A DNA stretch of 22,233 bases from the NCBI GenBank assembly GCA_038248345.1, contig JBBRXO010000044.1, positions 1 to 22,233 on the forward strand, written 5' to 3'. Origin of the DNA: Armatimonadota bacterium. GTDB lineage: Bacteria; Armatimonadota; Hebobacteria; CAIYQO01. The notes beneath the pieces were generated by a model, which saw nothing but the letters and a program-made list of their open reading frames with translations, searched no databases and was not told the origin of the DNA. Positions 4,171 to 22,233 of the stretch are shown one piece after another; positions within the stretch are counted from its first letter, which is position 1, and each line of letters opens with the position of its first letter. The position numbers and the translations under genes were made by a program.

Positions 4171-4178
4171 CACTTACC

Positions 4179-4372: not shown

Positions 4373-4396
4373 AAGCAAGCTCAATATGCAGAAGAA

Positions 4397-4481
4397 TGGT
4401 GGGCAAGGGGGGACTCGAACCCCCAATCCTTGCGGAACCAGATCCTAAGTCTGGCGCGTCTGCCAATTTCGCCACTCGCCC
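4397..4481 (-). tRNA. trnL: tRNA-Leu (anticodon TAG), 85 nt, encoded CCA
   Basis: Acceptor stem GGGCGAG/CTTGCCC, discriminator A plus CCA. D arm TGGCGAAATTGGCAGACGC. Anticodon arm CCAGA-CT-TAG-GA-TCTGG. Long variable arm. T arm GGGGG-TTCGAGT-CCCCC. Confidence 0.98.
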
Positions 4482-4490
4482 ACATTGTTT

Positions 4491-4519
4491 AGGGTAACAT
4501 AGGCGTGATATTGCGTCAA
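4491..4519 (-). promoter_or_regulatory. Sigma70-type promoter of tRNA-Leu
   Basis: Minus strand TTGACG (4519-4514), 17-bp spacer ending TGT, TACCCT (4496-4491), then 9 nt to the mature 5' end. Confidence 0.7.
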
Positions 4520-4535
4520 GAGTAAGACGCCCCCG

Positions 4536-5754: not shown

Positions 5755-6909
5755 ATGCTACTTAAAAAATCTGCTGGATTTACGGTGATAGAGTTACTCG
5801 TCTTCATTGCAATCATTGCATTGCTGTCGGCGATTCTCATTCCAGTATTCAGCAAGATGCATTTTCAGACAGAGCGCTCCTCCTGTATCAATAACCTGCG
5901 CGAGATCGGCGTGGCGCTGGGGCAGTATCACGATGATTATGGCAAATACCCGGCGCAACCTACCGGAAAATACCTGAATCCCACGGCGATGTCCAAATTT
6001 GATCAGACACAGATGCCCTTTGATATTCTCCCCGCTGGAGTCGGTGACGTCAGACCGGGGACGACAGACGTGGGTAGAATGCGGGTAACAAGCACAGCAA
6101 CCCAGCCGGGGCATTATATAGTCAAAGTCTCAACCGATTCGGTTACTTCATCAGTGACCAATGTGATGACCTCCCCGGATAATGGGTCTACCTGGTCGGG
6201 CGAGATGCCGATGTACAATTACACAACAGCCACTATCACCGCGGCGGATATGCTGACGGTGCCGATTGACTCCCAGGGCAAGGTGAATGCTACCTTTGCG
6301 CCCCCCCCCCCTAATTATGTCGGTGAAAATAGCGGCGCTAACCTCAATTATGACCGGTGGAATTTTGTCACTGGTGTTGATACCGTAGGTATGGACAACT
6401 ATGGCCTTGAAACTATGTACCGACTATACTTGAATGATAAGAAAGATTTTCTGCGTAGTGCAAACAAGCTTCACTGCCCGTCCGCACGGGATACCGAGAG
6501 ACTCGACCAGATGACACTCTGGAATAAGCTGACACCCATTGAGGCAAAAGGGTTCCGTTATGACCCGTTGCTGGGTGGGTATAACACCTATGATGTTACG
6601 TACAATTATAACCAGTACAATCAGAAGATCCTCGATTTCGAGACGGCGCTGGGGCCAGCGGCGGCGGGGCTGTATATTAAACGGCAATTGAGCAATCTGC
6701 ACCCACCCGCGGATACCGTGGTATGTTTCTGTTTTGCCCATCGTACCTTCGGGACGTTGCCGGATATACTACCCAAATTTGGCGAGATGGACTTGGTGCT
6801 TTGGCTCGATGGGTCGGTGGAAGTGATGAAGCCGTACAATGTAGTGGGCGCGAGTGGCGAGGTGCAGGTGCCAACCTGCCTGTATTCACGTGGCGCAGGA
6901 ATCAAATGA
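5755..6909 (+). CDS. Type IV prepilin-like protein, DUF1559/H-X9-DG-like family (384 aa)
   Basis: Class III signal KKSAG|FTVIELLVFIAIIALLSAILIPVF (E5 present), then SCINNLREIGVALGQYHDDY, LHCP and C-terminal AH...DLVLWLDGSV. ATG 5755 is preferred over GTG 5665 because it gives a short basic leader. Confidence 0.88.
   Translation: MLLKKSAGFTVIELLVFIAIIALLSAILIPVFSKMHFQTERSSCINNLREIGVALGQYHDDYGKYPAQPTGKYLNPTAMSKFDQTQMPFDILPAGVGDVRPGTTDVGRMRVTSTATQPGHYIVKVSTDSVTSSVTNVMTSPDNGSTWSGEMPMYNYTTATITAADMLTVPIDSQGKVNATFAPPPPNYVGENSGANLNYDRWNFVTGVDTVGMDNYGLETMYRLYLNDKKDFLRSANKLHCPSARDTERLDQMTLWNKLTPIEAKGFRYDPLLGGYNTYDVTYNYNQYNQKILDFETALGPAAAGLYIKRQLSNLHPPADTVVCFCFAHRTFGTLPDILPKFGEMDLVLWLDGSVEVMKPYNVVGASGEVQVPTCLYSRGAGIK
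6301..6311 (+). repeat. C11 homopolymer inside the pilin-like CDS (in frame, encodes PPPP)
   Basis: GCG CCC CCC CCC CCT. Confidence 0.95.
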
Positions 6910-9074
6910 TGATGGATGTAGACTTGATGAAAATAAGCGTAAAAACACAGCGCCGCCGGGGTTTCACCCTGGTAGAGGTGCTGGTCGCTGTCATCATTCT
7001 ACTCATCGGCGTGGTGGCTGCGTTGCGCATCTTCCCGCCGGGCTTCCGCGCATTGACGGAGAGCCAGGAAACCAACCGTGCGATGGCTACCATGCAAGCG
7101 CAGATTGCCGAATTCCAGAACCACCCGGAAAGCCTGCCCGATGCGATTCTGCCCGTTGATTATTCCTCAACCGAGTCTTTGAACTGGATGAAGAACTTTG
7201 ACTTCAACGATTTAAGCCCCATCGACTACCAGGGTAACCCGGATAAATGGCTCTCCAGCCTGAAGATGCCGATGTCCGGCAGCAGCTCCAGTTGGCCGCT
7301 ATGGGAGCCTATAAGTGTACGCGCCATGCGCCGCATCATCGGCGAGCGCGTGGTGATCCCCTCTGACCTCACTAATAAAAAACACGTGGCTACGGTGATC
7401 GTCGCGCCCTTGAATAGTGCCGTACTCACAGTTGATAATACTGCTGATATCAGCGCCGGGATGCGGCTCTATCTATCCGATGGCACAACATCATTCTTCG
7501 TCAAGGTGGTGAGTGTCGACTCGGCTACGCAGATAACCATCGCCGAGACGGTCACGGTGATGTTGCCCGCTTATTTATCAACAACCGAGGGCGGCTCGCC
7601 ATGTTATATGCCGCGCTTCGGGCCGATTACCCCGAATATGCACTGGGATACCCCGTCATCGACCTTCATCGCCGACCTAACTCCGTTGGCCATCTACGAC
7701 CTGCGCTATCGCAATGTCACGCTGGAGCAACTGCAGGGGCTGGCCGGCAACGGCGCTACCGGGAATGATGACTTTTACTACGCGGTGAATTACACCGACG
7801 GTACAGTCTACTTCCTCAAGCCGAAGGTGGCCACCACCAGTGTACGCTTCATCTTCAGTATGTTGGATCCGCTTAACAAACAGGTGCAGGTGGCGGGGGA
7901 GACGCAGACGCTGCCGGATATCACTATTGATGCTCAGCTCATCTTCACCGGCATGAGTGATCCGCTGCGCACCGGGAGCGATTCTACCGGGCAGCTTTAT
8001 GCCCTGCAATTCCCCACGGGGTACAAGTTAATCCCCGGTAGCGAGCAGTTCAACCGCGCTTACAATTACGTGCAGAATGTCGATCCCTCGGCGCTGGGCG
8101 CCGGGCAATATACTGTGGAGACAGATCCGTCGGGCTTGACGCTGGACGTGTTGCACTTCGCGCAGGCGGATGTCGGGCGCACGGTGAAACTTGATTATAC
8201 AGCTGCTGATTGGAACATCCTGCATGAGGATGTCGCGGTGGACCCGCAGGGGTATCTGAACCTGATGGCGCGCAATCTGAAGGTGGGCTACATCTTCAAC
8301 TTCCCGCGGGAGCCGCAACCGTGGGGGCTGACCCAGCCGCTGTTGGGTGATCCTTTGAAATTCAAGCAGCAGGACGAAGTGGTACGGCTGGTGAATTTAC
8401 GCACCGGTATCAGCTATAGCGTTACTACCGATGCCTATTCGTCGCCGACGTATCCCAAGTATTTCCTGCAGCCTCCCGCGCCTGTTAATTCTCCCTTGCC
8501 GGGGACGGTTGACATGGCGCAGGCGGCGGATGGGCGTATCCGCATCGGGCAACTGATGGCAGATGGTGATAAGTATATCGAGGGCTCCCCGGAAGTATCG
8601 CCTTTCATGGGTGATACCTACCGTGTCTTCTACCGCACCCGGCAGGACTGGACGCTGCAGACATTCCGCGCCCCGGCGCAGTTCTGGTACACCAGCGACG
8701 CCGGCAATTTAGGTTGGGACAGGTACAACCTGACGGGTAATATTGTAGCAGTGCCGGGAGTATACGAAGGGCAAACGATAGCCGTGGATTACCTGTACGA
8801 CCAGGGGGTCGCCAAGGCGCGCGTTAGCGGCGAGCAGCATTTAATCCCCCATCGCGAGGTTAACGGGGTGAGTCATGTGACGCTGAATAATACTCCCAAT
8901 GGCGCCATCAGTGTTCGGGGAGTGTCGGTGACCGTTCGGGCGCTGTGGGCCCAACCGCGAAACACCACCGCCAGACGCTACAGCGCTACTGAACTGCTTG
9001 GCGTGGACAGAACCATCAACGAACGCTGGCAATCGAAGAGCATCACGGTAGTGCTGCCAGCGACGAAGGAGTAG
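6906..9074 (+). CDS. Giant PilV/GspI-like minor pilin (722 aa)
   Basis: RRRG|FTLVEVLVAVIILLIGVVAALRIFP (E5 present). ATG at 6906 overlaps the upstream stop (ATGA); alternative ATG at 6927. Ends in a beta strand typical of pilins (SKSITVVL). Confidence 0.82.
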   Translation: MMMDVDLMKISVKTQRRRGFTLVEVLVAVIILLIGVVAALRIFPPGFRALTESQETNRAMATMQAQIAEFQNHPESLPDAILPVDYSSTESLNWMKNFDFNDLSPIDYQGNPDKWLSSLKMPMSGSSSSWPLWEPISVRAMRRIIGERVVIPSDLTNKKHVATVIVAPLNSAVLTVDNTADISAGMRLYLSDGTTSFFVKVVSVDSATQITIAETVTVMLPAYLSTTEGGSPCYMPRFGPITPNMHWDTPSSTFIADLTPLAIYDLRYRNVTLEQLQGLAGNGATGNDDFYYAVNYTDGTVYFLKPKVATTSVRFIFSMLDPLNKQVQVAGETQTLPDITIDAQLIFTGMSDPLRTGSDSTGQLYALQFPTGYKLIPGSEQFNRAYNYVQNVDPSALGAGQYTVETDPSGLTLDVLHFAQADVGRTVKLDYTAADWNILHEDVAVDPQGYLNLMARNLKVGYIFNFPREPQPWGLTQPLLGDPLKFKQQDEVVRLVNLRTGISYSVTTDAYSSPTYPKYFLQPPAPVNSPLPGTVDMAQAADGRIRIGQLMADGDKYIEGSPEVSPFMGDTYRVFYRTRQDWTLQTFRAPAQFWYTSDAGNLGWDRYNLTGNIVAVPGVYEGQTIAVDYLYDQGVAKARVSGEQHLIPHREVNGVSHVTLNNTPNGAISVRGVSVTVRALWAQPRNTTARRYSATELLGVDRTINERWQSKSITVVLPATKE

Positions 9075-9166
9075 GGGCACATGGCATGTGCCATCGAAAC
9101 GGGGTATGGGAAATATGACCGATTGAAGCTATGGTTATGAAGTGGGCACAAGCCTTGTGCCCCTAC
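9071..9166. mobile_element. REPIN-like element (inverted pair of GTAG-type REPs), copy 1
   Basis: Left arm GTAGGGGCACATGGCATGTGCC, right arm GGGCACAAGCCTTGTGCCCCTAC. Each arm is a GTAG tetranucleotide plus hairpin. A homologous copy lies at 21109-21203. Confidence 0.85.
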
Positions 9167-9194
9167 TTGGAACTTGAAACATGGAATTTGGAAC
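9167..9194 (+). repeat. Tandem heptamer repeat, 4 copies
   Basis: TTGGAAC TTGAAAC ATGGAAT TTGGAAC. Confidence 0.8.
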
Positions 9195-9195
9195 T

Positions 9196-10929
9196 ATGAA
9201 ACAAGGTGTAACATTGATAGAGCTAATGGTTACCATCGCCGTATTAGCGGTGGTGATGGCTCTGCTCGCCATACCGCTGATGATGGGTTCCAGCTACGTG
9301 CAGAAGGCCACTGCGTTGCGCGAGGCGCAACGCGCGGGGGAAGATTCTTCGCGCAAGCTTAAGCGCGATATTGAGACCGCCATGTACGTTTTCGACCTCC
9401 CGCCGGACGGCTCCTGGGTATCGATGGTACCCGAGGCCCCTGGTACCAATGGCCAGCCAATGGATAGCGCCGGTAACGCCACCATCATCCGCTACGCGCA
9501 GGTGCTGGATTTCCCCTGGTCAGGGGAAAATGGCGCCACCTCGTTACTACAACCGAATTATCTGACCGGGGCATACGGCACCCACTATGCGGATTTCTAC
9601 AGTGCATTTCAAGGTACGAGCAGTATCCCATACAATCCGTATATACTGGGTCGTTATGAGCAATTACAGCCGTGGAACGCCATCTGGGGGGTGACTGGTT
9701 ACGGCACTGATGGCTCCTTCCCGATGAATAAATATACCGATACCACGCGTGATAACCTCTGGCGGCACTTCCGCAATGAGATGATCTCTGTCACCCCATA
9801 TGGCAGTGAGTGGGATGTGCCCGTATTTCAGGTCACCCCGCTTCGCCTTAACTCTGAGGCGTTACAGGAGCAACTCACCAGTGACGGCAAGCCCACGTAC
9901 ACATTCACCTCGCGCTACCCGTTATGGGCGGCACGTAATGCGGATTTTGAAGCCGCCGCCAATATCTTCACCGCGGGCGGTGAGGCAAATCCGTTCCTCG
10001 GTATAGATGATTACCTGGCGCTCTACCCACAGGATTCTAACCCTTATGGGTATGCCGTGCGGGTGTATGATACTACTGGAGTTATGGTATACGGCTACAA
10101 TACCAGCAATAACACCTTTGTCCACAACCGGCACTTCATGGACTGGCCGGCATATGACCGCCCTGATGTGGCCATAACCCAGGCGTGGACAAAAGCAGAC
10201 ATCGAGCAACAACGGCTGGCGGGTAAGCTGGTCTTCGTGCAACCGTGGAAATTCACCTGGATAGCAGCGCATCCTACCGGAAAGACGGGCGCGGACGGCA
10301 CCACTCCCCTCCTCTACGCCGAGGTCGCCATGCCGGTGAGCGGCGCCTGGCAATCGCCCAATATTACCACCTTGCCGCACGTCATAGATGTGGGGGGGAC
10401 ACCCTTCAAACTATCGCTGCAGACAGATCCGCTGAAATTATTACCCGCTGAATTCTGCCTTTCGGATAGTACCTTTTCCCCACCTGCATGGAAGGCGAGT
10501 ACGGGTTATAAATTGGGTGACCGCGTTGTCCCCACCACCGCAAACGGGCACAGTTATCGTTGCATCTCCGTGGTGTTGCCGAGTATCACCAGCGCGTTAG
10601 AGCCGACCTGGCCTGTCACCATCGGAGGATGGGTGGTAGATAATGGCATCACCTGGCAACTGGATGACGGCAACCATGCGTTGATTATCTGCACATCGGC
10701 AGCGCCTCCCGGCGGGGCGGCGATTACCTCCGCGCCGTGCTACATCAGTGATCTGCAACCGGGTGACCGGGTTATTGCCACCTATTCAACTCGTGCGGTG
10801 CTGAATGTGGCACTGGCGGTGAGCCGCTTGAATCGTGCCTCCGGCGCAAGCAAAAGCGGGGAGACCTTTAACCTAAGCGTGCAGGTTGAGGCGGGCAACG
10901 CCGCCCGCCGCGCACGCGGTAATGAGTGA
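9196..10929 (+). CDS. Giant PilW/GspJ-like minor pilin (577 aa) with a CBM-like Trp-rich insertion
   Basis: MKQG|VTLIELMVTIAVLAVVMALLAIPL (E5 present), and the PilW/GspJ-type helix end KLKRDIETA. The ATG at 9181 lies inside the heptamer repeat, so 9196 is preferred. Confidence 0.82.
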   Translation: MKQGVTLIELMVTIAVLAVVMALLAIPLMMGSSYVQKATALREAQRAGEDSSRKLKRDIETAMYVFDLPPDGSWVSMVPEAPGTNGQPMDSAGNATIIRYAQVLDFPWSGENGATSLLQPNYLTGAYGTHYADFYSAFQGTSSIPYNPYILGRYEQLQPWNAIWGVTGYGTDGSFPMNKYTDTTRDNLWRHFRNEMISVTPYGSEWDVPVFQVTPLRLNSEALQEQLTSDGKPTYTFTSRYPLWAARNADFEAAANIFTAGGEANPFLGIDDYLALYPQDSNPYGYAVRVYDTTGVMVYGYNTSNNTFVHNRHFMDWPAYDRPDVAITQAWTKADIEQQRLAGKLVFVQPWKFTWIAAHPTGKTGADGTTPLLYAEVAMPVSGAWQSPNITTLPHVIDVGGTPFKLSLQTDPLKLLPAEFCLSDSTFSPPAWKASTGYKLGDRVVPTTANGHSYRCISVVLPSITSALEPTWPVTIGGWVVDNGITWQLDDGNHALIICTSAAPPGGAAITSAPCYISDLQPGDRVIATYSTRAVLNVALAVSRLNRASGASKSGETFNLSVQVEAGNAARRARGNE

Positions 10930-13535
10930 ATAATATGATAGCAGGGATAGAACATAAAAAAATAAACAGACGCACACACCGCGGCCAGGCGCTGATTATC
11001 GCCGTGTTAATCATGTTCATGCTGGTGGGGTTGAGCGGCGTATTTATCGCATTGGTGAACCATGCGCTGGTGCAGACAGTGAAGTCAGGCGAGCGCGACA
11101 AGCTGGAAGAGGTCACGCAGGCAGGGCTGGAATATGCCAAAAAAATGCTCATCTACAGCCCGGAAGGCGCTGACTGGCGCGCCACCGGCGACAGTAACCT
11201 TACGGGTGAACTGCTTGGTTTTAACAAATTCGGCGACGGGTTCTACCGCATCACTATTGACTATGGTAATGGCGCTGGCCCACTGGCCCGCTTCCTGCAC
11301 ATCTACATTGAGGCCCGATTGGCGGAGCCGAATCGACCGCTTGCCGACCAGTTGCCTAAGCCGTTCATCACCCGTAAGCTCGATGCCTATATGCCGCTGG
11401 GGCTGCCGGATTATCTGCGCTGGGTGACTAACAGTGACGGCAGAACAGAGCCGGCGACGCTGGGTAGCATGGTGATGCTGGATGGTCTGCCGACTGTTAA
11501 TAAAGAACCAAATTCGTTATTGGTGACTAATATTGATACTGATAATGACTTTGAAAAGATCGCAAATCGCACCACTATTCCGGTGGGGACACCGGTGATG
11601 ACCTGGTTTGATGGCCCCATCCGCAGCGAAGCGTCATTAGAACTGGGCAACATGCGCCTGGAGCAGGTGGGTAGCGGTGCTGCGCTGGAAGTGGCGGGCT
11701 CTGTGCGCGAATTGGATACCAATCCCGGTTATGGCGGCGTCCACCTGATGAAGAACAAGGCGACCCAGATCGATGCTGCGACGATGGTAGACCGCCTCAC
11801 AACGTTGCGCAACAGTAATGACGCCAGTGTGCAATCGTCGCAGAATAATCAACTGGTGCGCGGTCTGCGCGCCCCCACCATCGACCTGCGTGACCCCGCC
11901 ACCGGGCAGGATCGCTACCGCACTCTCACGCGCGACTCGGTACCCACACCGGGCAAGACAGTTGAGGTACTCGGCTGGGGCGAAGGCATCTACCTGAATA
12001 ATCAGCAGCAGATCCAATATAATCATGATATTGATAAGCTGCGCACTGAGTGGCTGAACCCGGGCGACACCGCCCGGTGGGACAACGGTGTCTACAATCC
12101 GACGCTGAATGGCCAGGCGGTAGAGGTGGTGCTGGGTGACTGGACATTGAACGCCTCCGGCAACGTCGTCGCGCTACCGCAAATTCAATTACGCCGCTAT
12201 GATGCCCCCTTTGTCGATGTGGATGGCAATGCGCTTATCACGCAACAGGATGCGGATGGTTGTTTCTACAAATATGTCGATTACCCACGTAACGGCGTCA
12301 TCTTCGCCGAGGGCAACCTGGTGGTGAAGGGTAATCTGCCGGCTTCAGTCGGCTATGATGGCGTGTTCATAACTCATCCTCCCACGGGGCAAGCGGGTGG
12401 CTTTGATTCTTCTGATGGTTCGATCAAATATTATTTCGACGACTACAACCGTCGCTTCGATCTCACTATCGTCTCCGGCGGTACCATATATATTGAAGGC
12501 AATCTGTTGGGGCCGAGTTCACGCGGGGTAGTGCCTTCCGGCTCTCCATATGACAGCAAGCTGGCGTTGCTGGCGGCGGATAACGTCTGCCTCAACCCCA
12601 CGCGTCTTTTCAACTTTACTGCTAATCAGCAACCGCAGGAGATAAATGGAGAAAAGGTATGGCGACTTAGCCAGGGCGCGGGTAGCGCGTTGACTGTCTC
12701 CTTCACCACCGCCGGGGCAGGTATCTCTATCTCGCGCATGTTGCTGCGCCACGCGGGCGACAGCAGCAATCTCATCACCCCCTATACACAGATGCGCATG
12801 TCGATCAATAACAACCCTTATATGTGGGGAGGGATGGAGAATAATCTGCTCTTCGGCTCGGCACTCACGCAATCGACACTTTTCCCGTCTATTACGCAGT
12901 GGTCGCCGAATTTATTCCCGGATAACCCGCTAGCACGTCAGCTGATCACCGCGCCGCCGGGAATTCTCGGCTTTGGGCAAAAGAACACCATCAATTTCGA
13001 GGTCGTAGGCGGCGGCGATTACCTGCTGGGCGCCGGTTCTGTCGACGGCACCCTGGGCCCCGGTCTGCTGGTTAATGGGCTGGATCTGCAGGTGGATGCC
13101 CTCTGCTATGCCCAGCGCGGCAGTTGGTTCATCATCCCCGGCAAATACAGTAATGAGAGCGCCGACCCGGTGATCAAAAACCAGCCGTGGCCTTTCCCCA
13201 AGTATCGTGAACCTCAGGACGTGCGGATTACCATCTACGGCGCGATTATAGAGAACCGCCCGGCACCGCTGGAGATGGTCAACGAGTGGACGCGGCATTG
13301 GCGCGGCGCTAATTTAGCCTACTATACGACGACAGGCTCCGTCTCCGATATGCTCGATCCTGCCATCAATGCTGATGCCCGCCGCATGGGGATTGAGTAT
13401 CATTATGATACGCGGCTAGCACAAGCCGTCTGTTTTGACATCGACAGCCTGGGGAACAAACTATATCATGCACGCCTGCCGAAATTGCCGGTCAGCCCGA
13501 ATGTGTATTCCATCGGACAACAGAGCGGAATGTAG
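10926..13535 (+). CDS. Giant PilX/GspK-like minor pilin (869 aa)
   Basis: RRTHRG|QALIIAVLIMFMLVGLSGVFIALV lacks E5, as PilX/GspK do. Helix motif QAGLEYAKKML. C-terminal beta repeats NGVIFAEGNLVVKG, LTIVSGGTIYIEGNL, LALLAADNV, ITIYGAIIE. GTG start overlaps the upstream stop (GTGA); alternative ATG at 10935. Confidence 0.82.
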   Translation: MNNMIAGIEHKKINRRTHRGQALIIAVLIMFMLVGLSGVFIALVNHALVQTVKSGERDKLEEVTQAGLEYAKKMLIYSPEGADWRATGDSNLTGELLGFNKFGDGFYRITIDYGNGAGPLARFLHIYIEARLAEPNRPLADQLPKPFITRKLDAYMPLGLPDYLRWVTNSDGRTEPATLGSMVMLDGLPTVNKEPNSLLVTNIDTDNDFEKIANRTTIPVGTPVMTWFDGPIRSEASLELGNMRLEQVGSGAALEVAGSVRELDTNPGYGGVHLMKNKATQIDAATMVDRLTTLRNSNDASVQSSQNNQLVRGLRAPTIDLRDPATGQDRYRTLTRDSVPTPGKTVEVLGWGEGIYLNNQQQIQYNHDIDKLRTEWLNPGDTARWDNGVYNPTLNGQAVEVVLGDWTLNASGNVVALPQIQLRRYDAPFVDVDGNALITQQDADGCFYKYVDYPRNGVIFAEGNLVVKGNLPASVGYDGVFITHPPTGQAGGFDSSDGSIKYYFDDYNRRFDLTIVSGGTIYIEGNLLGPSSRGVVPSGSPYDSKLALLAADNVCLNPTRLFNFTANQQPQEINGEKVWRLSQGAGSALTVSFTTAGAGISISRMLLRHAGDSSNLITPYTQMRMSINNNPYMWGGMENNLLFGSALTQSTLFPSITQWSPNLFPDNPLARQLITAPPGILGFGQKNTINFEVVGGGDYLLGAGSVDGTLGPGLLVNGLDLQVDALCYAQRGSWFIIPGKYSNESADPVIKNQPWPFPKYREPQDVRITIYGAIIENRPAPLEMVNEWTRHWRGANLAYYTTTGSVSDMLDPAINADARRMGIEYHYDTRLAQAVCFDIDSLGNKLYHARLPKLPVSPNVYSIGQQSGM

Positions 13536-13563
13536 CGTTGTTGAGGTGGTAAAATGTGTGATG

Positions 13564-13584
13564 GCATGGGCGTCCCGCCCATGC
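13564..13584. repeat. Solo REP-like hairpin (possible terminator or processing stem)
   Basis: Perfect 9-bp stem GCATGGGCG-TCC-CGCCCATGC, no U tract on the + strand. Confidence 0.7.
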
Positions 13585-13592
13585 AAAGCGCA

Positions 13593-13734
13593 ACCCCGGG
13601 CGTTGCCCGAGGCTATGATATTTATCTGGGTTAATTGGTTATGAATCATATTAGCTCGTGAATAAATAACGGGCGAATACGGGCAGAGGCAAATAGAGAG
13701 AAATAATATCATAGCCTCGGGCAACGCCCGGGGT
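13593..13734. mobile_element. 142-bp MITE/REPIN-like element with perfect 30-bp terminal inverted repeats
   Basis: ACCCCGGGCGTTGCCCGAGGCTATGATATT (13593-13622) and its exact reverse complement (13705-13734) flank an 82-bp AT-rich spacer. Each arm has an internal hairpin CGGGC-GTT-GCCCG. Confidence 0.8.
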
Positions 13735-13752
13735 AGATTGCTGGGGGTGGGT

Positions 13753-16700
13753 ATGAATCATGCCATGCAAAGATGGTTTATCGGTATATATGTCGGAATG
13801 CTACTGCTAGTGGGGTTGAGCGTCAGCGCTACGGATATCACGGTGAATTATCAGCGTACTACCCGAGCTTTCCACGTCGCCCAACTGGAGCTCAGCAGTT
13901 ACGGCGTGGGTACCACCCCGCTCTTCTCACTGCTCTGTAATAGTCCGCTGAAGCCAGATGGCTGGCAATTCGATAACCCGCTGGCCCCGGGCGGTATCAC
14001 CGACAAGAATAACAGCGCCTACTGGGTAGTGCCGCTCGCGGATAACAAAGTCACCGCCCTGGCAGCCTTCGATCTGCTGGTGGTTAATGATCTGGGCAAG
14101 GCGCGGCTGAACAACAACGACAAAGCCAATCTACGCAAACTCCTCGACCTCGGCGCGACCATCTGGTTCAACGGCGGCGATACCCTCGATACGCAACTGG
14201 TGCAGACGACGAATGATTTCATTGATCCCCCCATAGTGTTCAATAATACCCTGGTCGATCCTGACGGACGCAATCTCCTCGCCGCTGATGCCGCACATTG
14301 GCTGTTGCGCGGGCAATTTACCATCTCCGATGATGAGTTGAATTCGTTGCGCTCACACGGTTCCTATCGCACGGCACTGGTGCCAACGGTCGCGCTGCGC
14401 GCCGTAGTCACCACGCAGGGCCCGGCCTTGGATCCGACTAAAAAGACCCAGCTTTCCGTGGTGGCAGTGGGGCAGATCAGCCGGGGGACGGCCATCGTCA
14501 CGTCAGAAAATGTCATTGGCGCTATCGCAGATTGGTCGGGTACGGACCCCACCAAATACCCGCAAGGCGATTCCGATACTCTCGCACAACCGCCGAATAG
14601 CAACCGCTCTTACCTCGCCGGAGTGAAGTTCGCCTATAATATGTTGGGACGCCCGGTGAACTGGGCGGCAGTAGGCGGCCCGGCGGGCGCCGTGCGTGCA
14701 GTTAATGCCGCCTACCCGCCGGCACTGGCGCGGGCGTGGACGGACTCTTTCACCGCCACCTGTGATCCCGTGGCCGCGGGCGCTTATCTGGCGCTCACTG
14801 GCAACACCACCGGCATGGAATTGCCCGCCGAGTTACGCGTCTATCGCGTCAAACGGCTACTGGATGACGCTGGCGATGCGCTGGATTACCCTTACGGACT
14901 CAGCGATGAGAACGGCCAGGTGGTCAATAAGACTAATCTCACTCCGCGCCCTCCCGGCTTCCCCGAGGACGCGGTGAACGGCTCCGAGCAGGATCTGTGT
15001 TTCTCCCTCGCCTCCACCACCGGCTGGATCGGCTCCCCCGTCTTCGGTGAAGTGAAGTCGGCCATCGGCAGTACCAGCATCACGCGCACCGTCATCTATG
15101 CGCTGGAGAACAAAGATATTAATACGGCGACGCTCCACTGCATCGCCCTTGACCCCTATATTCGCGACACCGTCGGCACCGCGCAAGTGGCCACCGATAT
15201 CTTCACTAAAGATGTCCCGCTCAGCAATGGCCTCTGCCGTGCGTCACTCACGCGCAACGGCAATGTGTTGGTGGTAACGCTCTTCGGCACCGCCAGGACA
15301 CCAGCCGATCAGCGTATCCTTATCTATGATGCCCAGACCGGTGCCCTGCGTACATCATTGGGCACCGTCCCCAATAAACTATTCAATTACACCTGCCCGG
15401 CGAGTATCGTAGCCGGCAATATCGAGTTCGACGCCACTGACCGCGAAGTAGGGATATATGGCGGTGGTGACCCCGATGTGAAACGCCGACGTCAGGACAT
15501 GGTGGACATGATAGCAGTTACTGCCGAGAGCATCGATCGATATGGAACGAATATCCTCGCAACATCGGTCGCGCTTATTCCGCCGACGGTGGTGGTGACA
15601 ACGACGGACAGCTTGAATTTTGTGCCCGATGATCTGCGTCTCATTGATGCGGCGGGCACCAATTACTACCTGGGCGACGTCTCTAAAGCTCCCAACGTTA
15701 CCACCAAAAATGCCAGCGCCTTATTTCGCAAAAATCACGTTCTATCCGTGATGGCTTCGGGCAACTCGATCAAGATCACCTTCAAGCATTGGAGCATCTT
15801 CAGTAATACCGATGCAGGGGAAAAGCCGGTGCTGGTGATGCCCTGCACCTTGAGTTATTCGCTGGGTAGCGGCAACAAAAAAGTGCTGAACATCAGCCAA
15901 CTGATGCCTGGCTATCAGATTATCATTGATGGCACCACCCGTAACATGGCGTTGTTTGATGCCACCGGCGCCAGCTCACGCAGCACAGTACAGAAATTGG
16001 ATGGCGACCTGCAACTGGACGGCACTGGGAAATTAATGGCCGGCAGTAGCTACGGTTACCTGGCTAATAGCCCGTTGCTCTATTATCATGATATGCTCAT
16101 TGCTACTACCAATGGCTATTCCACCAATAACGGTTATCTTACCGGTTTGCGCTTGCGCCATCCCGGTTTCAATGATGCCAATATCCCAGCAGGAAATATC
16201 CTATATGGATCGTATAGTCATGGTGATATATTGGACACCTGGGGAGACTCGTGGGTCTTCACTTTCGCGGGCGATACCCTGGGGCCGAAAAACCCGCTGC
16301 CCGCTTTCTCCTGGGATGGAAACAAACCTCTGGCACGCTGGTCTACCGATTTTCCTTACCCATCCGCGGCCAAAGGCGACAGCATATTTACCATTGGAAC
16401 CTACGCCTATTATTCAAATAGGGGGGGGGGAAGTCCTTCCACGTATTTTGACGAAACAAATTTCCCCACCGTCAACAGGAGCGTACTTTACGGGTTATCC
16501 CCGACCCCTGACCGCTATTTGCACCAGACGGTCACCGCTGGCTGGGTCATCGCGCCGTTGGTAGCTCCTACGGTTCTCACCATTTCGGCCACCGAGCTCA
16601 CTGGTGCCTTGCATGTGGGGGCGCGGGCGCTCTTGAAGATAAATGGCACGACCCCGCCCACCACCTGGGATATGGGCAATATCATCAGCATCACCGGCAC

Positions 16701-19700
16701 TGGCCCCTACACCGTTAGCTTCACTAGGCCAGCGCCGAACCTGTTGGATCTGACACAGACTTCCCTACTGGTGAACACCAGCGCCCCTTACCTGAGTCAT
16801 ATTCAGGCGTGGAATACCGTCACGGGCGCGGAGCCAGTGCGCAATTACAAGAGCGATAACCTGCTCACCGCTCCTTTGGCGCTAGGTGGCACGATGCTGG
16901 CAGTCGATAACCCGAGTAGTTTCGCGATAAATGGTGAGATCACCCTGACGGATCTGGTCACCCGCCATGTGATGGCGCTCCCAGTGAAGGTCACTGGTAT
17001 TGACCTGGTAGCGAAGACCGTCACCATTGATACCGGCGCTGATCAAGCCTACCCGGCAGGCGCGCATATTACGCACACCTGGGATGCCGTGCGCATCAGC
17101 GAAGGGATCTGCGTCACTCCTCCAGCGGGACAATCAGCTGATCCACTCGCGCGCGACCAGGAGATTATGGTTGTCAGAGGCGGATTGGCATATACCTGCC
17201 ATGAGCCGGACAGCAAAGACCCGATATCAAATACCATGAAAATATTTGATCAGGATTCCATGACGCTTTTGCCGAGTTATAACAGTATCCCCAGAACAGA
17301 GGCAAACTACCAGGTAGATCATCGCAATGGCCGCATCGAATTAAGCCCGAAGGCCGCCGGATATGACGCCGACCGTTTTGTGACGGTACATTATTTCACC
17401 AATGATAGCATCAATGGAGTGCCTACCAAGGTGCGCCATGCCGAGGTGATGTATGTGCCCACGCAGATAAAGTGGCAATATAACTTCACCGACGCCATCC
17501 CCGATAGCGGGCCGGTGGTGGTGGGTGATACCATCTACGTCACCGTCCAGCAATCAACAACCGATGTTAAATGGCGTCCGGCGATATACGCCTTCGCTAC
17601 CGCGCCGCGCGATCCGTTCAATGTGCAACCGCTGTGGGTGCGCCCGTTGAATCCCACGCTCCCCGGCGCCGCCCTGCCGCCTTACCGTGGCGCCACCACA
17701 CCCGTGCCTACCAGCACCGGGTTAGTCATCGGCACTGCCTTACCGGGTCTGGTAAACAACGAGCTGGTCAGCTTCGCCGATCGCGGCACGCTGGTCTCCG
17801 ACGGTCAGCGACTGCTGCGCTACAATGGCGCCGGTATGCTTACCTGGGCGGCCTTCGCAACCCAGGGGCGCGATCCGGGACTGATGGGGCCAGCGGCGCC
17901 AACGGAAGATGAGGATAAGGGGACGGCAGTGGAGTCCTTCAACCTGCTCACCCGTGTGCGTCGTCTGCCCAGCGGCAACCTGCTCCTCTGCGATACCGGC
18001 AACAGCCGCGTGGTAGAGATGGATCGCGCCGGCAACATCGTCTGGCAATACCCCGATACTGACCTGACTTTCCAGGATCAGGACAAGGATTCTTTGAATC
18101 AACCGATACGTTCAGTAAACAGCGGCGGAGCACTCAGTTACTTCGATGTGCGCCAGCCCACTACTTCGTATTACCGCCTCACAACCCCGCGTGATGTGCG
18201 CCGGTACGCCTATAATTCGCTCGTGGCTGACCCCACCAAGGTGAAGGTCTTCTGGCGTCGCCCCTCCGGCGCCTCGGCGTTTTGTCTGGCGGATGGCAAA
18301 TGGTACACTACTTCCGGGCCGAAGAGTACTTACGCAGTGGATTCTGCTCTTGCGCTCAGTGGCATCTCGCCGTACGTGCAAGCGGTAGATACCCCGGCTA
18401 CTTCGCCGATGCTGGTGAATAACCGGGCGGCGCGCATGGCGTTAAGCACCTCCGACGGCAAAGTCGCCTACCAGACGGACGAGAACAAATGGTACGCCTA
18501 TCTGTCCATGCCCACGCCGCAACCTGCGCAGTGGCAAGAGCAGCAGGTTATTCGCACGGTGGATAGTATCGGCGTACTGCTGGCATTGCCGGACAATATG
18601 ATCACGGTGGGCGATACCTTCTACTGCAACGCCCGCCGTGCCCGCTACACACTGTTGGCAAAACCAGCGAGTCGGATGGATAACTGGCGCGCTCAGCCCG
18701 TCATCCCCTTCCTGGCCAGCCAGGCAGAAATGCTGGCCCAAACCGGTCTGCAATCTGCTGACCGAGTCTATCGCACAGACGCCAATCAATGGTATATCTA
18801 CATCGGCGGTAATCCCGCTGATATCCTCAATTGGACTACCTCAGCGACTAAAACGGTTGATACCAATGCCGCCATGCTCGCGCTCACCCCACCCCCCTCG
18901 GTGGGCACCATCGTGAAGCGCAACGATGTAAATCTATCCTATACTCTGGTTGCCCTGCCCGCCACTTCTGCGGATAATTGGGAAGTGCAGCAGATTATCC
19001 CGGCTATCGGAACACCGACGGCCATGACCAAACCAATATTAAGCCGGGTGGGCGGACGCGTATATCGCACTGATGAACACCGGTTCTACACGTTAACTGC
19101 TTTGCCTGCGACAAATATCGCCAACTGGCATACGGAAAAACTGCTCCTTATGCTCACCAGCGCTCCTATCCCGGCTGGCGAGTTGCCTCCCGTGGCAGTA
19201 GTGTCGGACAACGTCCCCGCGCCTATGCTCGGGTGGGTTGCCAATGCGGCAGGCCTCACCGGGAGCTATCTGGATCGGATTGGCGATATGGCCTATGCCG
19301 TGGATAGTGGCAAGTGGTACCAGTTAATAGGCTTTCCCAACACCGATATCATCAATTGGCAGGTAGTGAATTATTACAGTGCCTCGGCAACTGCCATCAC
19401 CGCCGCCGTAGATGGTGATCGGGCATATCGTACCGATTTAAAGAAGTGGTATCTGCGCCAGGGCGGTGCCTGGGTACAGAGCACCCCGCTGCTCGCCGTC
19501 GGCTCACGTGCGGCCATGCTTAGCTATACCACCGCGCAGGTGGGCGACTACGTCTACCGGAATGATACTGCCGACTGGTATATACTCAATGCCCTGCCGG
19601 CATCCGCTGCTGTTAACTGGGTAAAAACCATCGCGCCAACCCCGGCGACGCCACTGTTGCCGACTATCGCTGTGGCAGCGGCCATAAATAATTTGCCCGC

Positions 19701-21090
19701 GACGGGCGATATCGACCTCACACCTTATAAGGCGGTGATGCGGTGGGAGAGCACCCTCATCGCCGACACCGGCAACCATCGTGTACTCGAGGTAAACCGA
19801 CCATTGCTCAAGCTGGAGGATACCGATAAATTCAACAGCGACAATAACATGAATTTCGCGCGCGGCTTCCAGTATCGCCCGGATTGCTACTACAAATACA
19901 TCGATATGGTCACTACCACCTGGTCGACGGAAAAGCCGCTGGTGCAGGGAGTTGATGAGATCGTAGGTGGCGCCACCGAGTTGGATCTGGTGCGCATCCC
20001 GGTGACCACGCCGCTGGCCTACACTGTGGCCATGCGCTATCGCGGCATCGACAATCGCCTGGAGGACACCTACCAGCCGACGGCCACCGAGGCCAGTTAC
20101 AATGACCCGGCGGCACAATCCCACTCGCGCGAGCTGCTAGTGGCCCTAGGTAATACGGCCACGCTGGCGGAGACGGGCAATACCGCCCAAACGGCGCGCA
20201 CGCTACGCATCAGTCGTCCGCGCCCGATGGCGGTGCCGGCTGCCCCGTCGGTTATCCGTAACTTCTCCACTATTACCGCTCCGGCGGCTTTGGGAACCGA
20301 TGTGCTGCAGCTTGATGTCTCGCAAGAGTATAAAGTGGGTGAGCAGATTGACGTCACGGACAACTTACGCACCGTGGTCTTCAAAACGACGATTATCGGG
20401 CTCGATACCACCGCCAACAAGATCACGTTGGCTGCTGTCCTGCCACGAGCATTTGTGACGGGTGATAAAGTATGGCACCACCGCCTCAACGCGCTGGAGC
20501 CGCGCCCCAACACCAGCGACTTCGCTCATATCCAGCAGCTTGATCTGGTGACGTTGCGCAATGGCATGAGTGATGAAGTACACGCATTGGTAGTTGATGC
20601 CCAGGGTGTGCGCGAGATAGTGATGGATCCGACGCGTCTTCCCGTGGAAGACCCGATCTTTGAGATGGATCAGCAATCCTACCGGGATGCACTCGGTCAA
20701 TTCAAAGCACAGGTGAACAATGATGCGCTGATCAACCTGCGTGCCGCGCAATTAGCGGTGGGAGATAAAGCGATTGTCAAAGCGGCAGCGCTTGATTGGG
20801 CGAAAGACAACATGTTCATGCCGCTAGCTGTTGTGCGGCAGGACAGCGGTAATGGAACAGTGGATACTGATCACCATGTGCGTTATCTGATCTCGCAGAT
20901 GAACAGTACCGCCCGTCGCGTACACCTCTTCGAGGCGCGCTACTCCAAAGACATCGCCATTAATAGTTGGGGTCTGATAGATGACGCGCTGGACTACTTC
21001 ATCTTCCCCGACCCGCTGACACTAAACTATCCATCGTTGCCGGGAGGAAGCTACCCATTGACGCAACCGTTGGCGCTGGCGGGGGATTAG
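13753..21090 (+). CDS. Giant secreted multidomain beta-propeller protein (PQQ-like and NHL-like blades), putative PilY1-analogous tip adhesin (2445 aa)
   Basis: Sec-type signal MNHAMQRWFIGIYVGMLLLVGLSVSA. N-terminal alpha/beta domain (FDLLVV...KANLRKLLDLGATIWF; DUF4159/GATase-like by impression). PQQ-like blades (WQYNF..IPDSGPVVVGDTIYV). NHL blades (RRLPSGNLLLCDTGNSRVVEMDRAGNIVWQY; TLIADTGNHRVLEV). Lies directly after the PilX-like gene. Confidence 0.75.
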   Translation: MNHAMQRWFIGIYVGMLLLVGLSVSATDITVNYQRTTRAFHVAQLELSSYGVGTTPLFSLLCNSPLKPDGWQFDNPLAPGGITDKNNSAYWVVPLADNKVTALAAFDLLVVNDLGKARLNNNDKANLRKLLDLGATIWFNGGDTLDTQLVQTTNDFIDPPIVFNNTLVDPDGRNLLAADAAHWLLRGQFTISDDELNSLRSHGSYRTALVPTVALRAVVTTQGPALDPTKKTQLSVVAVGQISRGTAIVTSENVIGAIADWSGTDPTKYPQGDSDTLAQPPNSNRSYLAGVKFAYNMLGRPVNWAAVGGPAGAVRAVNAAYPPALARAWTDSFTATCDPVAAGAYLALTGNTTGMELPAELRVYRVKRLLDDAGDALDYPYGLSDENGQVVNKTNLTPRPPGFPEDAVNGSEQDLCFSLASTTGWIGSPVFGEVKSAIGSTSITRTVIYALENKDINTATLHCIALDPYIRDTVGTAQVATDIFTKDVPLSNGLCRASLTRNGNVLVVTLFGTARTPADQRILIYDAQTGALRTSLGTVPNKLFNYTCPASIVAGNIEFDATDREVGIYGGGDPDVKRRRQDMVDMIAVTAESIDRYGTNILATSVALIPPTVVVTTTDSLNFVPDDLRLIDAAGTNYYLGDVSKAPNVTTKNASALFRKNHVLSVMASGNSIKITFKHWSIFSNTDAGEKPVLVMPCTLSYSLGSGNKKVLNISQLMPGYQIIIDGTTRNMALFDATGASSRSTVQKLDGDLQLDGTGKLMAGSSYGYLANSPLLYYHDMLIATTNGYSTNNGYLTGLRLRHPGFNDANIPAGNILYGSYSHGDILDTWGDSWVFTFAGDTLGPKNPLPAFSWDGNKPLARWSTDFPYPSAAKGDSIFTIGTYAYYSNRGGGSPSTYFDETNFPTVNRSVLYGLSPTPDRYLHQTVTAGWVIAPLVAPTVLTISATELTGALHVGARALLKINGTTPPTTWDMGNIISITGTGPYTVSFTRPAPNLLDLTQTSLLVNTSAPYLSHIQAWNTVTGAEPVRNYKSDNLLTAPLALGGTMLAVDNPSSFAINGEITLTDLVTRHVMALPVKVTGIDLVAKTVTIDTGADQAYPAGAHITHTWDAVRISEGICVTPPAGQSADPLARDQEIMVVRGGLAYTCHEPDSKDPISNTMKIFDQDSMTLLPSYNSIPRTEANYQVDHRNGRIELSPKAAGYDADRFVTVHYFTNDSINGVPTKVRHAEVMYVPTQIKWQYNFTDAIPDSGPVVVGDTIYVTVQQSTTDVKWRPAIYAFATAPRDPFNVQPLWVRPLNPTLPGAALPPYRGATTPVPTSTGLVIGTALPGLVNNELVSFADRGTLVSDGQRLLRYNGAGMLTWAAFATQGRDPGLMGPAAPTEDEDKGTAVESFNLLTRVRRLPSGNLLLCDTGNSRVVEMDRAGNIVWQYPDTDLTFQDQDKDSLNQPIRSVNSGGALSYFDVRQPTTSYYRLTTPRDVRRYAYNSLVADPTKVKVFWRRPSGASAFCLADGKWYTTSGPKSTYAVDSALALSGISPYVQAVDTPATSPMLVNNRAARMALSTSDGKVAYQTDENKWYAYLSMPTPQPAQWQEQQVIRTVDSIGVLLALPDNMITVGDTFYCNARRARYTLLAKPASRMDNWRAQPVIPFLASQAEMLAQTGLQSADRVYRTDANQWYIYIGGNPADILNWTTSATKTVDTNAAMLALTPPPSVGTIVKRNDVNLSYTLVALPATSADNWEVQQIIPAIGTPTAMTKPILSRVGGRVYRTDEHRFYTLTALPATNIANWHTEKLLLMLTSAPIPAGELPPVAVVSDNVPAPMLGWVANAAGLTGSYLDRIGDMAYAVDSGKWYQLIGFPNTDIINWQVVNYYSASATAITAAVDGDRAYRTDLKKWYLRQGGAWVQSTPLLAVGSRAAMLSYTTAQVGDYVYRNDTADWYILNALPASAAVNWVKTIAPTPATPLLPTIAVAAAINNLPATGDIDLTPYKAVMRWESTLIADTGNHRVLEVNRPLLKLEDTDKFNSDNNMNFARGFQYRPDCYYKYIDMVTTTWSTEKPLVQGVDEIVGGATELDLVRIPVTTPLAYTVAMRYRGIDNRLEDTYQPTATEASYNDPAAQSHSRELLVALGNTATLAETGNTAQTARTLRISRPRPMAVPAAPSVIRNFSTITAPAALGTDVLQLDVSQEYKVGEQIDVTDNLRTVVFKTTIIGLDTTANKITLAAVLPRAFVTGDKVWHHRLNALEPRPNTSDFAHIQQLDLVTLRNGMSDEVHALVVDAQGVREIVMDPTRLPVEDPIFEMDQQSYRDALGQFKAQVNNDALINLRAAQLAVGDKAIVKAAALDWAKDNMFMPLAVVRQDSGNGTVDTDHHVRYLISQMNSTARRVHLFEARYSKDIAINSWGLIDDALDYFIFPDPLTLNYPSLPGGSYPLTQPLALAGD
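16421..16430 (+). repeat. G10 homopolymer inside the giant CDS (in frame, encodes RGGG)
   Basis: AAT AGG GGG GGG GGA. Confidence 0.95.
18409..19626 (+). repeat. About 8 degenerate ~40-50-aa protein repeats
   Basis: Consensus (V/L)xSxAAMLAL...(V)GDRVYRTDxxxWYxLxxxPAxxxxNW, e.g. ASQAEMLAQTGLQSADRVYRTDANQWYIYIGGNPADILNW and GSRAAMLSYTTAQVGDYVYRNDTADWYILNALPASAAVNW. Confidence 0.9.
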
Positions 21091-21108
21091 GTTTTTTAGG
21101 TAATTTTT

Positions 21109-21203
21109 GTAGGGGCACATGGCATGTGCCCTCGATACGGGGCGAAAGAGACATACCAATTGAAGGCATGGTTACGACGTGGGCACAAGCCTTGTGCCCC
21201 TAC
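21109..21203. mobile_element. REPIN-like element, copy 2
   Basis: Same arms as 9071-9166 and an alignable spacer (TCGAxACGGGG...ACCxATTGAAGxxATGGTTAxGAxGT). Confidence 0.85.
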
Positions 21204-21206
21204 AAC

Positions 21207-21227
21207 TTGGAACTAGGAATTTGGAAC
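21207..21227 (+). repeat. Tandem heptamer repeat, 3 copies
   Basis: TTGGAAC TAGGAAT TTGGAAC, preceded by a partial AAC. Confidence 0.75.
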
Positions 21228-21252
21228 TTAAAAACTCCCCCGGGAGGGCGTA

Positions 21253-22233
21253 ATGAAACGATATATGGTGAAATATTTAATATTGCTACTGCTATTGTTG
21301 GGGCGAGGCGCGCTGGGCGCGTCAAACTGGGCGATGCAGGGGGCCGATGTACAGCATAGCGGGGCCACCGTTTTAACAGTTCCCACTGCGGTGCCAACGT
21401 TGCAGTGGGCGGCGAAGCTGGGCATCTCCTTACAGTGTACCCCGGTGATGTCGCCGGATAATGATTTCGCTATTGTCGGTACTGATGATGGTAAGCTGAT
21501 GTGGGTACGCATGGCCGACGGTTTCACCCACGCTGATGATGCCGCCATCCCGGAATATTCCGCCCCGTCAACGGTGGCATTCAACGGTACGCCGCTGGTC
21601 ATCGGCGCCGGAGTGAGCTACTCGGTCTACGCTACTAATGCTGATGGACGGCTTTACTGTGTCGATATCGTCAACAGCTTGTACAACGCCAGTTGGATGG
21701 CTCCTTCCGCGGGCAATGCGCCGAAAGCCCCGTTCGTGGCATCCCCGTTGCCACTCACTGCCGGCGGAGTAGATTATATCTGCGTGGCCTCCACGGATGG
21801 CAATATATATCTCGTACAAAAAACTGCGCCGCACACCATCACTAAATGGTTCACGGCTGGTGGGGCGATAGAATCAACTCCCACGCTCGGAACAGCTAAA
21901 GCTGGCACCGGCACCGCCGCGCTGGAAGGGGCAATTGCCATCGGGCAAACGGCCGTCACGCTCACCGATGTGAGCGCCTTCACCGTGGGAGATACACTTA
22001 CGTTAACGGATGCCGTCGTCGGTGATGAGGTGTTGGGTACCATCACTGCAGTAGATACCACGGCGAAAATCGTCACCTTCTCCACCGGGCCATTGAATGT
22101 GCATAACGCCGCCGCCGGGGTTGATTTCACTATTACCCGCCACCAGCCGCTTTACTTTGGTTGCAATGATGGCCGCATTTATGCTATCAATGCAGATGAG
22201 TTGATCACGCATCAACGTTGGGTAACTAACCCC
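21253..22233 (+). CDS. Secreted PQQ-repeat (BamB-like) beta-propeller protein, 3'-truncated by the window end
   Basis: Not in the ORF track; translated by hand and open for 327 codons. SD GGAGGG at 21243-21248. Signal MKRYMVKYLILLLLLLGRGALGA, then NWAMQGADVQHSG and blades CTPVMSPDNDFAIVGTDDGKLMW, VYATNADGRLYCVD, ICVASTDGNIYLV, LYFGCNDGRIYAINA. Confidence 0.9.
   Translation, partial: MKRYMVKYLILLLLLLGRGALGASNWAMQGADVQHSGATVLTVPTAVPTLQWAAKLGISLQCTPVMSPDNDFAIVGTDDGKLMWVRMADGFTHADDAAIPEYSAPSTVAFNGTPLVIGAGVSYSVYATNADGRLYCVDIVNSLYNASWMAPSAGNAPKAPFVASPLPLTAGGVDYICVASTDGNIYLVQKTAPHTITKWFTAGGAIESTPTLGTAKAGTGTAALEGAIAIGQTAVTLTDVSAFTVGDTLTLTDAVVGDEVLGTITAVDTTAKIVTFSTGPLNVHNAAAGVDFTITRHQPLYFGCNDGRIYAINADELITHQRWVTNP

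Follow-up and report, generated by a model that had tools for sequence, protein, structure and literature searches.

We analyzed a 22,233-nt stretch of Armatimonadota DNA (the window), which is the entire contig C44 of a 2.98-Mb genome that is 95.7% complete. Six genes on the same strand fill this contig from position 5755 to its end: four pilin genes, which we call pilin A, V, W, and X, then G1 and the 5' part of G2, which encode two giant proteins. We found that this cassette is a real, uncharacterized variant of the tip module of type IVa pili (T4aP), and its pilins very probably make up the T4aP priming complex. For the cassette as a whole, we modestly favor a self-capping tip trimer of the ComZ type that carries G1 and G2 as optional adhesins on the tip, without strand donation of the PilY1 type. 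The literature searched, with most subscription journals and supplements outside its scope, contained no description of the cassette, and the main text of PMC11535203 had nothing relevant to it. As an earlier interpretation of the DNA by itself (the sequence-only reading) had supposed, no characterized system matched the locus end to end in the searches made.

The pilin genes agree with the sequence-only reading in their open reading frames (ORFs), their sizes, and their four consecutive class III signal peptides, of which the first three alone have the glutamate at mature position 5 (E5). The 4-nt overlaps that it described are also present, ATGA between A and V (6906-6909) and GTGA between W and X (10926-10929), and the order pilV-pilW-pilX with oversized subunits of 722, 577, and 869 aa is supported. 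All four proteins have a basic leader, glycine at position -1, and a hydrophobic α1, with E5 missing in the PilK/X subunit only. Of the Pfam families proposed for a check, PF07963 (N_methyl) passed its cut-off of 21.2 bits in A, V, and W (22.9, 31.2, and 25.0 bits, respectively) and PF07596 in A. PF05567 had no match, NHL and PQQ-like matches were sub-threshold, and X had no Pfam match, including no carbohydrate-binding module (CBM) entry; the expected PilX_N family appeared solely in an Atlas search, where the neighbors of X were DUF4900/PilX_N clusters. A pilin-type N-terminus in X is borne out by its structure model, in which residues 21-77 form a helix.

Genes for an ATPase, a platform protein, a peptidase, or a secretin are missing from the window, as had been noted before, but PilB, PilT, PilC, PilD, PilM, and a secretin are encoded elsewhere in the genome. 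We observed pilB-pilT-pilC-pilD plus a pilin on contig C38, where PilT scored 491 bits (TIGR01420 cut-off, 319), PilB fell just under its cut-off (660 versus 676), and PF00482 and PF06750 scored above theirs. A pilM run on C16 (PF11104) and a secretin on C21 (PF00263) were also above cut-off; the two contigs are joined by a 126-nt overlap, and both genes are the best matches of the relatives' operon genes. PilN, PilO, and PilP on C16 were assigned by position alone. The PilB/PilT/PilC/PilD set, with PilM and a secretin, is that of a type IVa system. Small pilin candidates lie on C10, C47, and C38. PilB (C38:14823-16676) scored above cut-off for NF053729, a c-di-GMP motif of the MshE type, and this suggests control of piliation by c-di-GMP.

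The position of the cassette among relatives identifies what it belongs to. In 19 of 30 relatives' loci, pilT and pilC are directly upstream of the cassette, and in 15 of 30 pilM is downstream; several of the missing linkages are contig ends. The genes usually run from pilB-T-C-D through one or two pilins to V, W, X, G1, and G2, after which come pilM, the genes next to it, and the secretin. Because the cassette lies between pilB-T-C-D and pilM...Q in most relatives, it is the tip module of the type IVa pilus operon in this phylum and not the separate filament system that the sequence-only reading had proposed.

The evidence for self-capping comes from X. Its AlphaFold2 model (75 sequences) had a pLDDT of 88.6 and a pTM of 0.89. 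After the N-terminal helix, the model has pilin strands at residues 105-113, 123-133, and 146-157 and a last strand at 862-865, and between these a long run of short strands forms a region like the ComZ solenoid. The top VIA match of this model was ComZ (6qvi; Z, 14.0; rmsd, 7.5 Å; 311 residues aligned), with X 103-869 aligned to ComZ chain residues 21-521 at 14% identity. Since this alignment reaches both C-termini, the C-terminal strand of X would close its own sheet in cis, and X likely caps itself as ComZ does. In the model, X thus combines the marks of a ComZ-type β-solenoid PilX, the missing E5 and a solenoid before the terminal strand. The matches next after ComZ were CBM36 and CBM35 on a β-sandwich at X 562-718 (Z, 9 to 10), with a Z of 9.8 and an rmsd of 2.5 over 107 aligned residues for CBM36 (1w0n); the model therefore suggests a grafted CBM35/36-like domain, putatively a glycan binder. 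A search of PDB sequences with the X profile gave no match. G20-Q21 of X is almost invariant across 150 homologues, and those homologues that have names are annotated as "hypothetical proteins" and come from Armatimonadota or from unplaced bacteria.

Large size is the rule for the pilins of this cassette across relatives: among 25 to 26 genomes with giants, V has 498 to 897 aa, W 459 to 750 aa, and X 759 to 1,113 aa. E5 is invariant in 28 V and 26 W sequences. Alignment of V shows a conserved pilin N-terminus and a conserved C-terminal motif with a large insertion in between; its best NCBIfam match is TIGR02523 (PilV), under cut-off. W keeps a C-terminal motif, VxxRNxxR, and has a short CBM5/12-like segment at residues 431-457, also under cut-off. 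From gene order, pilin A would take the FimU/PilH slot. Its start is of the DUF1559 (SBP_bac_10) type, and relatives carry one or two such genes (~220 to 630 aa, mature). Some families depart from these sizes: W is small in f12 and f33 and has 348 aa in G072 (f7), and f7 has two X paralogues of ~1,280 to 1,390 aa (loci L100, L136, and L137; genomes G047 and G072). A ~70-aa β-rich module occurs four times in the cassette (V 163-228, G1 1036-1108 and 2172-2242, and G2 221-292), and outside this genome it was seen in a few same-family relatives alone. Its sequence points to domain shuffling between pilin and giants. A putative YxVDYxxGxIxF module common to V, W, G1, and G2 gave E values of only ~1e-3 to 1e-4.

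G1 of this genome is the longest of the 23 orthologues compared, with 1,220 to 2,287 aa in the other 22. Its predicted layout is a DUF4159-like N-terminal domain, an eight-bladed PQQ-like propeller, and a six-bladed NHL/YWTD-like C-terminal propeller. In the window G1 itself, the one Pfam match was a sub-threshold NHL; DUF4159 was found in G1 of 7 of 17 relatives, in 4 above cut-off, and belongs to a Pfam clan with ThuA and GATaseI-like entries, according to PMC4702930. The view that a propeller other than PilY1, without a von Willebrand factor A (vWA) domain, fills the PilY1 slot was upheld: G1 had no vWA Pfam match and no DxSxS motif, and PF05567 (PilC/PilY1) matched neither the window G1, nor the G2 pieces, nor 17 G1 and 15 G2 proteins of relatives. 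A scan for PF05567 across 61 genomes gave 0 matches, but no control genome responded, so it is uninformative and was not counted.

Structure models cover X and one G1 orthologue, that of genome G045, from residue 150 to residue 1344 (pLDDT, 65; pTM, 0.69). The middle domain of this G1 was closest to the eight-bladed propellers of YxaL, Rv3035, and BamB (Z, 38 to 31). Over 741-1195, six-bladed YWTD/NHL-like propellers aligned right to the C-terminus with a Z of ~20 to 21, and the last strand was modeled confidently, in a block with a pLDDT of 85 beyond a low-confidence linker. In 13 of 23 sequences, the terminal motif LxxPxx(A/V)xR recurs as a blade motif further inside the protein; the window G1 misses the strict pattern. 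The model thus has the G1 C-terminus closing its own propeller. PilY1 (3HX6) was absent from the top 50 fold matches of this model, a result that does not exclude PilY1. The calcium motif Dx(D/N)xDGxxD, which is at the start of the middle propeller in G1, also occurs in 3 of 17 G2 proteins. Motifs of this kind are common in propellers. Inside the last propeller region, the window G1 has an insertion of eight ~45-aa repeats that occur nowhere else in the genome and in none of the 22 relatives' G1 proteins. A likeness of these repeats to phage tail fibers was unconfirmed: none of 50,697 phage records had a tblastn match, and the single PHROGs match was weak (E, 2e-4).

The 2,445-aa propeller and the second secreted PQQ-repeat protein of the sequence-only reading are both there, but the second is the larger one. 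G2 continues on C172 (1,214 aa, both ends open) and C67:7614-15527 (2,638 aa, 5' open), so that it has at least 4,179 aa and the six-gene cassette at least 9,176 aa. We infer the join across these contigs from the colinearity of the pieces with orthologues, since their ends do not overlap exactly and the break is not spanned by contigs of a related run. On a 4,878-aa orthologue (G003), C44 corresponds to 48-336, C172 mainly to 1046-1496, and C67 to 2407-4877. Same-family orthologues have 4,878, 5,886, and 4,954 aa. PQQ-like propellers, sub-threshold in the window fragment, were found in G2 of 9 of 15 relatives. The C-terminal core of ~1,100 positions is conserved and ends, by eye, in TolB/PD40-like blades; beyond the final strand, the tails have between 10 and 30 residues. 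Taken over both giants, the evidence leans against a free C-terminal donor strand in G1 or G2. Since a profile comparison of G1 with G2 gave a probability of 2.7%, with PQQ-like blades alone in common, the two are not simple paralogues. Both differ among relatives by inserted modules (repeat block, CBM5/12-like, Ig-like, and Golvesin). An Atlas search with the C-terminal 1,229 aa of G2 gave no usable match, and protein database searches returned 8 (G1) and 2 (G2) homologues, too few to judge the range beyond the phylum.

The earlier suggestion of a lineage-specific locus was not supported, as the cassette is phylum-wide. The X profile matched 198 of 201 Armatimonadota genomes at an E value of ≤1e-10, mostly with a single full-length match; the G1 N-terminal profile matched 142 and the G2 core profile 147, and these counts include genomes from which the profiles were built and which match by construction. 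By hand count, 35 genomes (families f7, f12, f33, and f40) match the X profile weakly; whole X proteins from five such loci scored E values of 1e-49 to 1e-74. At an E value of 1e-30, there are 551 clusters without names, which may lie within or outside the phylum.

Among genomes at least 85% complete, neither giant was found in f2 (0 of 7), f7 (0 of 20), f12 (0 of 4), f5, or G007, and giants were found in 2 of 5 f22 genomes. In 8 genomes of f2 and one of f5, pilM is the next gene after X, and this adjacency is positive evidence for loss of the giants. On a FastTree tree of X (hmmalign alignment; 40 sequences, 741 columns, midpoint root), giant presence changes four times: G007, f2 with f5, and two genomes of f22 branch from within clades that have the giants, and f7, f12, and f33 are basal, where absence of the giants could be ancestral. 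Because both are missing together in several lineages, G1 and G2 form a jointly inherited, dispensable module. The giant-less f2 and f22-g78 lineages keep full-size V, W, and X (W, 583 to 762 aa; X, ~1,000 aa); therefore, the giants are not needed to build a large tip. The X C-terminal motif (L/F)P-V/I/L-x-P is kept in 14 of 14 sequences from giant-less lineages. Candidate pilin residues lost alongside the giants are X D139-P140, G159, D720, and D765 and V 292-455, but the lineages are too few for these to be relied on. In the giant-less genome G135 (f33; L139:4093-6921), two proteins come after X, one of 497 aa that has PD40 repeats and then one of 440 aa; they are possible small stand-ins for G2.

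In the arrangement that we favor, PilD would mature the four class III pilins; their signals and the genes for PilB, PilT, PilC, PilM, and a secretin are present. X, without E5, would be the most apical subunit, recognized by V-W, and pilin A would link the trimer to the fiber, as is established for type IV filaments. The C-terminal strand of X is predicted to close the sheet after the solenoid and the CBM-like domain fold, so that piliation would need no PilY1. Sec would take G1 and G2 across the inner membrane, where they would bind to one another and to the large heads of the pilins before they exit via the secretin during pilus extension; these are the weakest steps. Glycans or surfaces may be bound by the CBM-like domain and by the inserts that vary in V, W, G1, and G2, and PilT retraction would draw the cell to the bound surface. 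By analogy, the accretion of modules in G1 and G2 would fit an adhesin role. Fimbriimonas is described in PMC4072686 as fimbriated and nonmotile, with pili thought to serve attachment, and the adaptor arrangement of CofB-CofJ (10.1101/2021.01.27.428410) is a precedent.

We infer the placement of G1 and G2 on the pilus tip, where they would bind surfaces, and several observations weigh against this scheme. The pairing of the last X strand is read from an end-to-end ComZ alignment of high rmsd (7.5 Å), Foldseek placed ComZ sixth for the X model (E, 2.6e-3), and mutual-information covariation for the partner of that strand was dominated by clade signal. The G1 model is that of a relative, without its first 149 residues and of moderate confidence (pLDDT, 65). 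G1 occupies the exact PilY1/MshQ slot, and 7 of 23 G1 orthologues, though not the window G1, have the calcium motif, which is of the PilY1 type according to PMC13190605. The type IVa operon is split up in the genome's own family, where the motor genes lie apart from the cassette (linked in 0 of 5 relatives), and a second secretin/ATPase system lies on C2. Propellers that resemble BamB or TolB often serve as assembly factors in the periplasm. The giant-less genomes are mostly metagenome-assembled, and "not found" there is no proof of loss. Finally, ~9,200 residues are very large for a secretin channel, which ComZ (~60 Å) is said in PMC6561018 nearly to fill. A phylum-wide tip of ~1 MDa, in which a self-capped trimer bears two unrelated giants (up to ~5,900 aa) docked otherwise than by β-strand addition, is a possibility that we regard as doubtful; too large for the secretin as a compact particle, it would have to be threaded or assembled in a new way, and it would give pili an independent second means of bearing a tip adhesin that is not a pilin.

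If the pilins form a T4aP tip and G1 and G2 lie off the filament, the giants could be a scaffold in the periplasm or associated with the outer membrane, with a part in folding the oversized tip or in gating the secretin; or they could belong to the cell surface or matrix, pushed out through the secretin and released. The nearest fold matches of the G1 central domain, the TolB/PD40-like end of G2, the location of the giants directly before pilMNOPQ in many genomes, their sheer size, and the failure to find a free C-terminal strand would all suit such a role. We nevertheless think it unlikely, as lineages without giants keep full-size V, W, and X, the variable inserts fit exposed binding better than a folding factor, and no lipobox or membrane anchor was seen in G1 or G2 by eye. 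That G1 (or G2) works as PilY1 does, in the manner of MshQ, with an extreme C-terminus that enters the X sheet and licenses assembly, is clearly improbable. X aligns with ComZ through its last strand, which is kept in giant-less lineages; the terminal G1 motif, although conserved a few residues from the stop, is a propeller-blade motif modeled inside its own propeller; the G2 tails vary; and pilX adjoins pilM without either giant in 9 genomes. Set against this are the place of G1 directly behind pilX, the calcium motif, and the strand donation predicted for the nonhomologous MshQ in PMC13533445. The same evidence disfavors the idea, from the sequence-only reading, that the giant docks on the pilins by its C-terminus.

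The cassette could also prime a short pseudopilus like that of a type II secretion system (T2SS), with G1 and G2 as substrates. Such a pseudopilus would suit the missing link to pilB-T-C-D in the own family, the GspD-type N0 domain of the C2 secretin, and the reassignment of some Armatimonadetes systems to T2SS reported in PMC6668835. Contiguity with pilT-pilC in most of the relatives' loci makes it very improbable, as PilT marks retractile T4aP. So does Fimbriimonas, described in PMC4072686 with visible fimbriae and pilB/C/D/M/Q/T. We consider a prey-contact or killing organelle, which had been raised for this locus, extremely improbable: size alone and analogy with the adaptable Tad tips of predators speak for it, but the cassette is retained near-universally and mostly in single copy across the phylum, and Pfam, NCBIfam, and PHROGs scans of the six window proteins found no toxin or hydrolase domain.

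Features of the cassette on contig C44
Feature	Positions	Strand	Remarks
Pilin A	5755..6909	+	384 aa; class III signal G|FTVIE, E5; PF07963 and PF07596 above cut-off
V (PilV/GspI-like core minor pilin)	6906..9074	+	722 aa; G|FTLVE; PF07963, 31.2 bits
REP-like inverted-repeat element, V-W gap	9070..9167	.	50 BLASTN matches of ≥40 nt genome-wide
W (PilW/GspJ-like core minor pilin)	9196..10929	+	577 aa; G|VTLIE; PF07963, 25.0 bits
X (PilX/ComZ-type cap pilin, as modeled)	10926..13535	+	869 aa; G|QALII, without E5
CBM35/CBM36/CBM6-like jelly-roll in X (putative)	12609..13079	+	Residues 562-718; fold match alone
142-nt element, X-G1 gap	13593..13734	.	Perfect 30-nt inverted repeats; 12 BLASTN matches, both orientations counted
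G1	13753..21090	+	2,445 aa; Sec-like N-terminus (by eye)
G1 repeat insertion	18409..19626	+	Residues 1553-1958; eight ~45-aa repeats inside last propeller region
REP-like element, copy 2, G1-G2 gap	21107..21205	.	BLASTN
G2, 5' end	21253..22233	+	327 aa; open at contig end

Genome-wide repeat elements fill all three intergenic gaps of the cassette, and they may be like repetitive extragenic palindromes (REP) or miniature inverted-repeat transposable elements. The 10-nt core of the first family has 86 copies in the genome versus ~8 expected, and interspersed repeats also occur in the window at 64-115 and 4321-4372. Window genes unrelated to the cassette are mreC (387-1175), an FAD oxidoreductase gene (1255-4173, minus strand), and a radical SAM protein gene (4536-5504, minus strand). 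Elsewhere in the genome, C2:11056-20220 is a cluster of pilM-like, secretin (1,106 aa, with the GspD-type N0), and ATPase genes. Three tandem secretin genes, PilT-like paralogues, and a small second run of minor pilins are spread among C68:8555-13139, C4, C71, and C17:32076-33940. A separate, complete 4,122-aa ORF with a signal-like N-terminus is at C11:1913-14278, beside 1,757- and 1,711-aa ORFs.

In the current model, the last sheet strand of PilK/X is either donated in trans by an adhesin like PilY1 or provided in cis by the cap pilin itself, without an adhesin; PMC13533445 describes the latter for PilK homologues without PilY1, including that of the Thermus competence pilus, where the strand is supplied across a large insertion. 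In the cassette, a pilin capped in cis appears to be combined with two giant proteins that are conserved and exported. Natural deletion lineages, in which pilX runs straight into pilM, are a ready control, and it becomes possible to test how large a protein can pass the secretin and how tip proteins other than pilins dock. From the CBM-like domain comes a suggestion of how these bacteria might hold on to polysaccharide substrates. Two uncharacterized protein families and three enlarged pilin families are named here for a phylum with cultured, fimbriated members.

The order of the genes and their E5 pattern are like those of fimU-pilV-pilW-pilX-pilY1 and pilH-I-J-K-pilC (PF05567), as given in PMC13533445 and PMC13190605. 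With the PilY1 module the cassette shares a large Sec-exported propeller protein behind pilX, the link to pilB/T/C/D and pilMNOPQ, and, in some G1 proteins, a calcium-type motif. It differs in having two giants instead of one, neither with PF05567 or vWA and both dispensable in several lineages, and G1 models as eight- plus six-bladed propellers, with no free donor strand found, whereas PilY1 has a seven-bladed domain. MshQ of MSHA pili is likewise a large non-PilY1 protein directly after pilIJK homologues; however, MshQ is a predicted C-terminal strand donor in PMC13533445, and here X appears to supply its own strand. The CofB-CofJ pair of enterotoxigenic Escherichia coli (type IVb) and the modular pilins treated in 10.1101/2021.01.27.428410 also use an enlarged tip pilin to adapt a secreted non-pilin adhesin. 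That comparison is one of architecture: CofB-CofJ has one modular pilin with a small secreted partner, and its extra domains follow the pilin module, whereas those of the cassette are inserted in three core pilins.

Thermus thermophilus ComZ (PDB 6QVI), in which a solenoid is inserted into the pilin sheet according to PMC6561018, and the β-solenoid PilX of cyanobacteria (HpsA/PilX-EPS subfamily) are like X, as modeled, in that E5 is missing, a solenoid precedes the last strand, a domain is grafted on, and PilY1 is unneeded. For the cyanobacterial PilX, PMC13759059 places the solenoid between the penultimate and last strands and proposes it as a PilY1 replacement. X is larger than ComZ (759 to 1,113 aa, and to ~1,390 in f7, versus 554) and its predicted graft is CBM35/36-like. 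The partner pilins have 460 to 900 aa, versus 156 to 233 in Thermus PilA1-3, and, unlike in either system, two giant non-pilin proteins follow the cap pilin.

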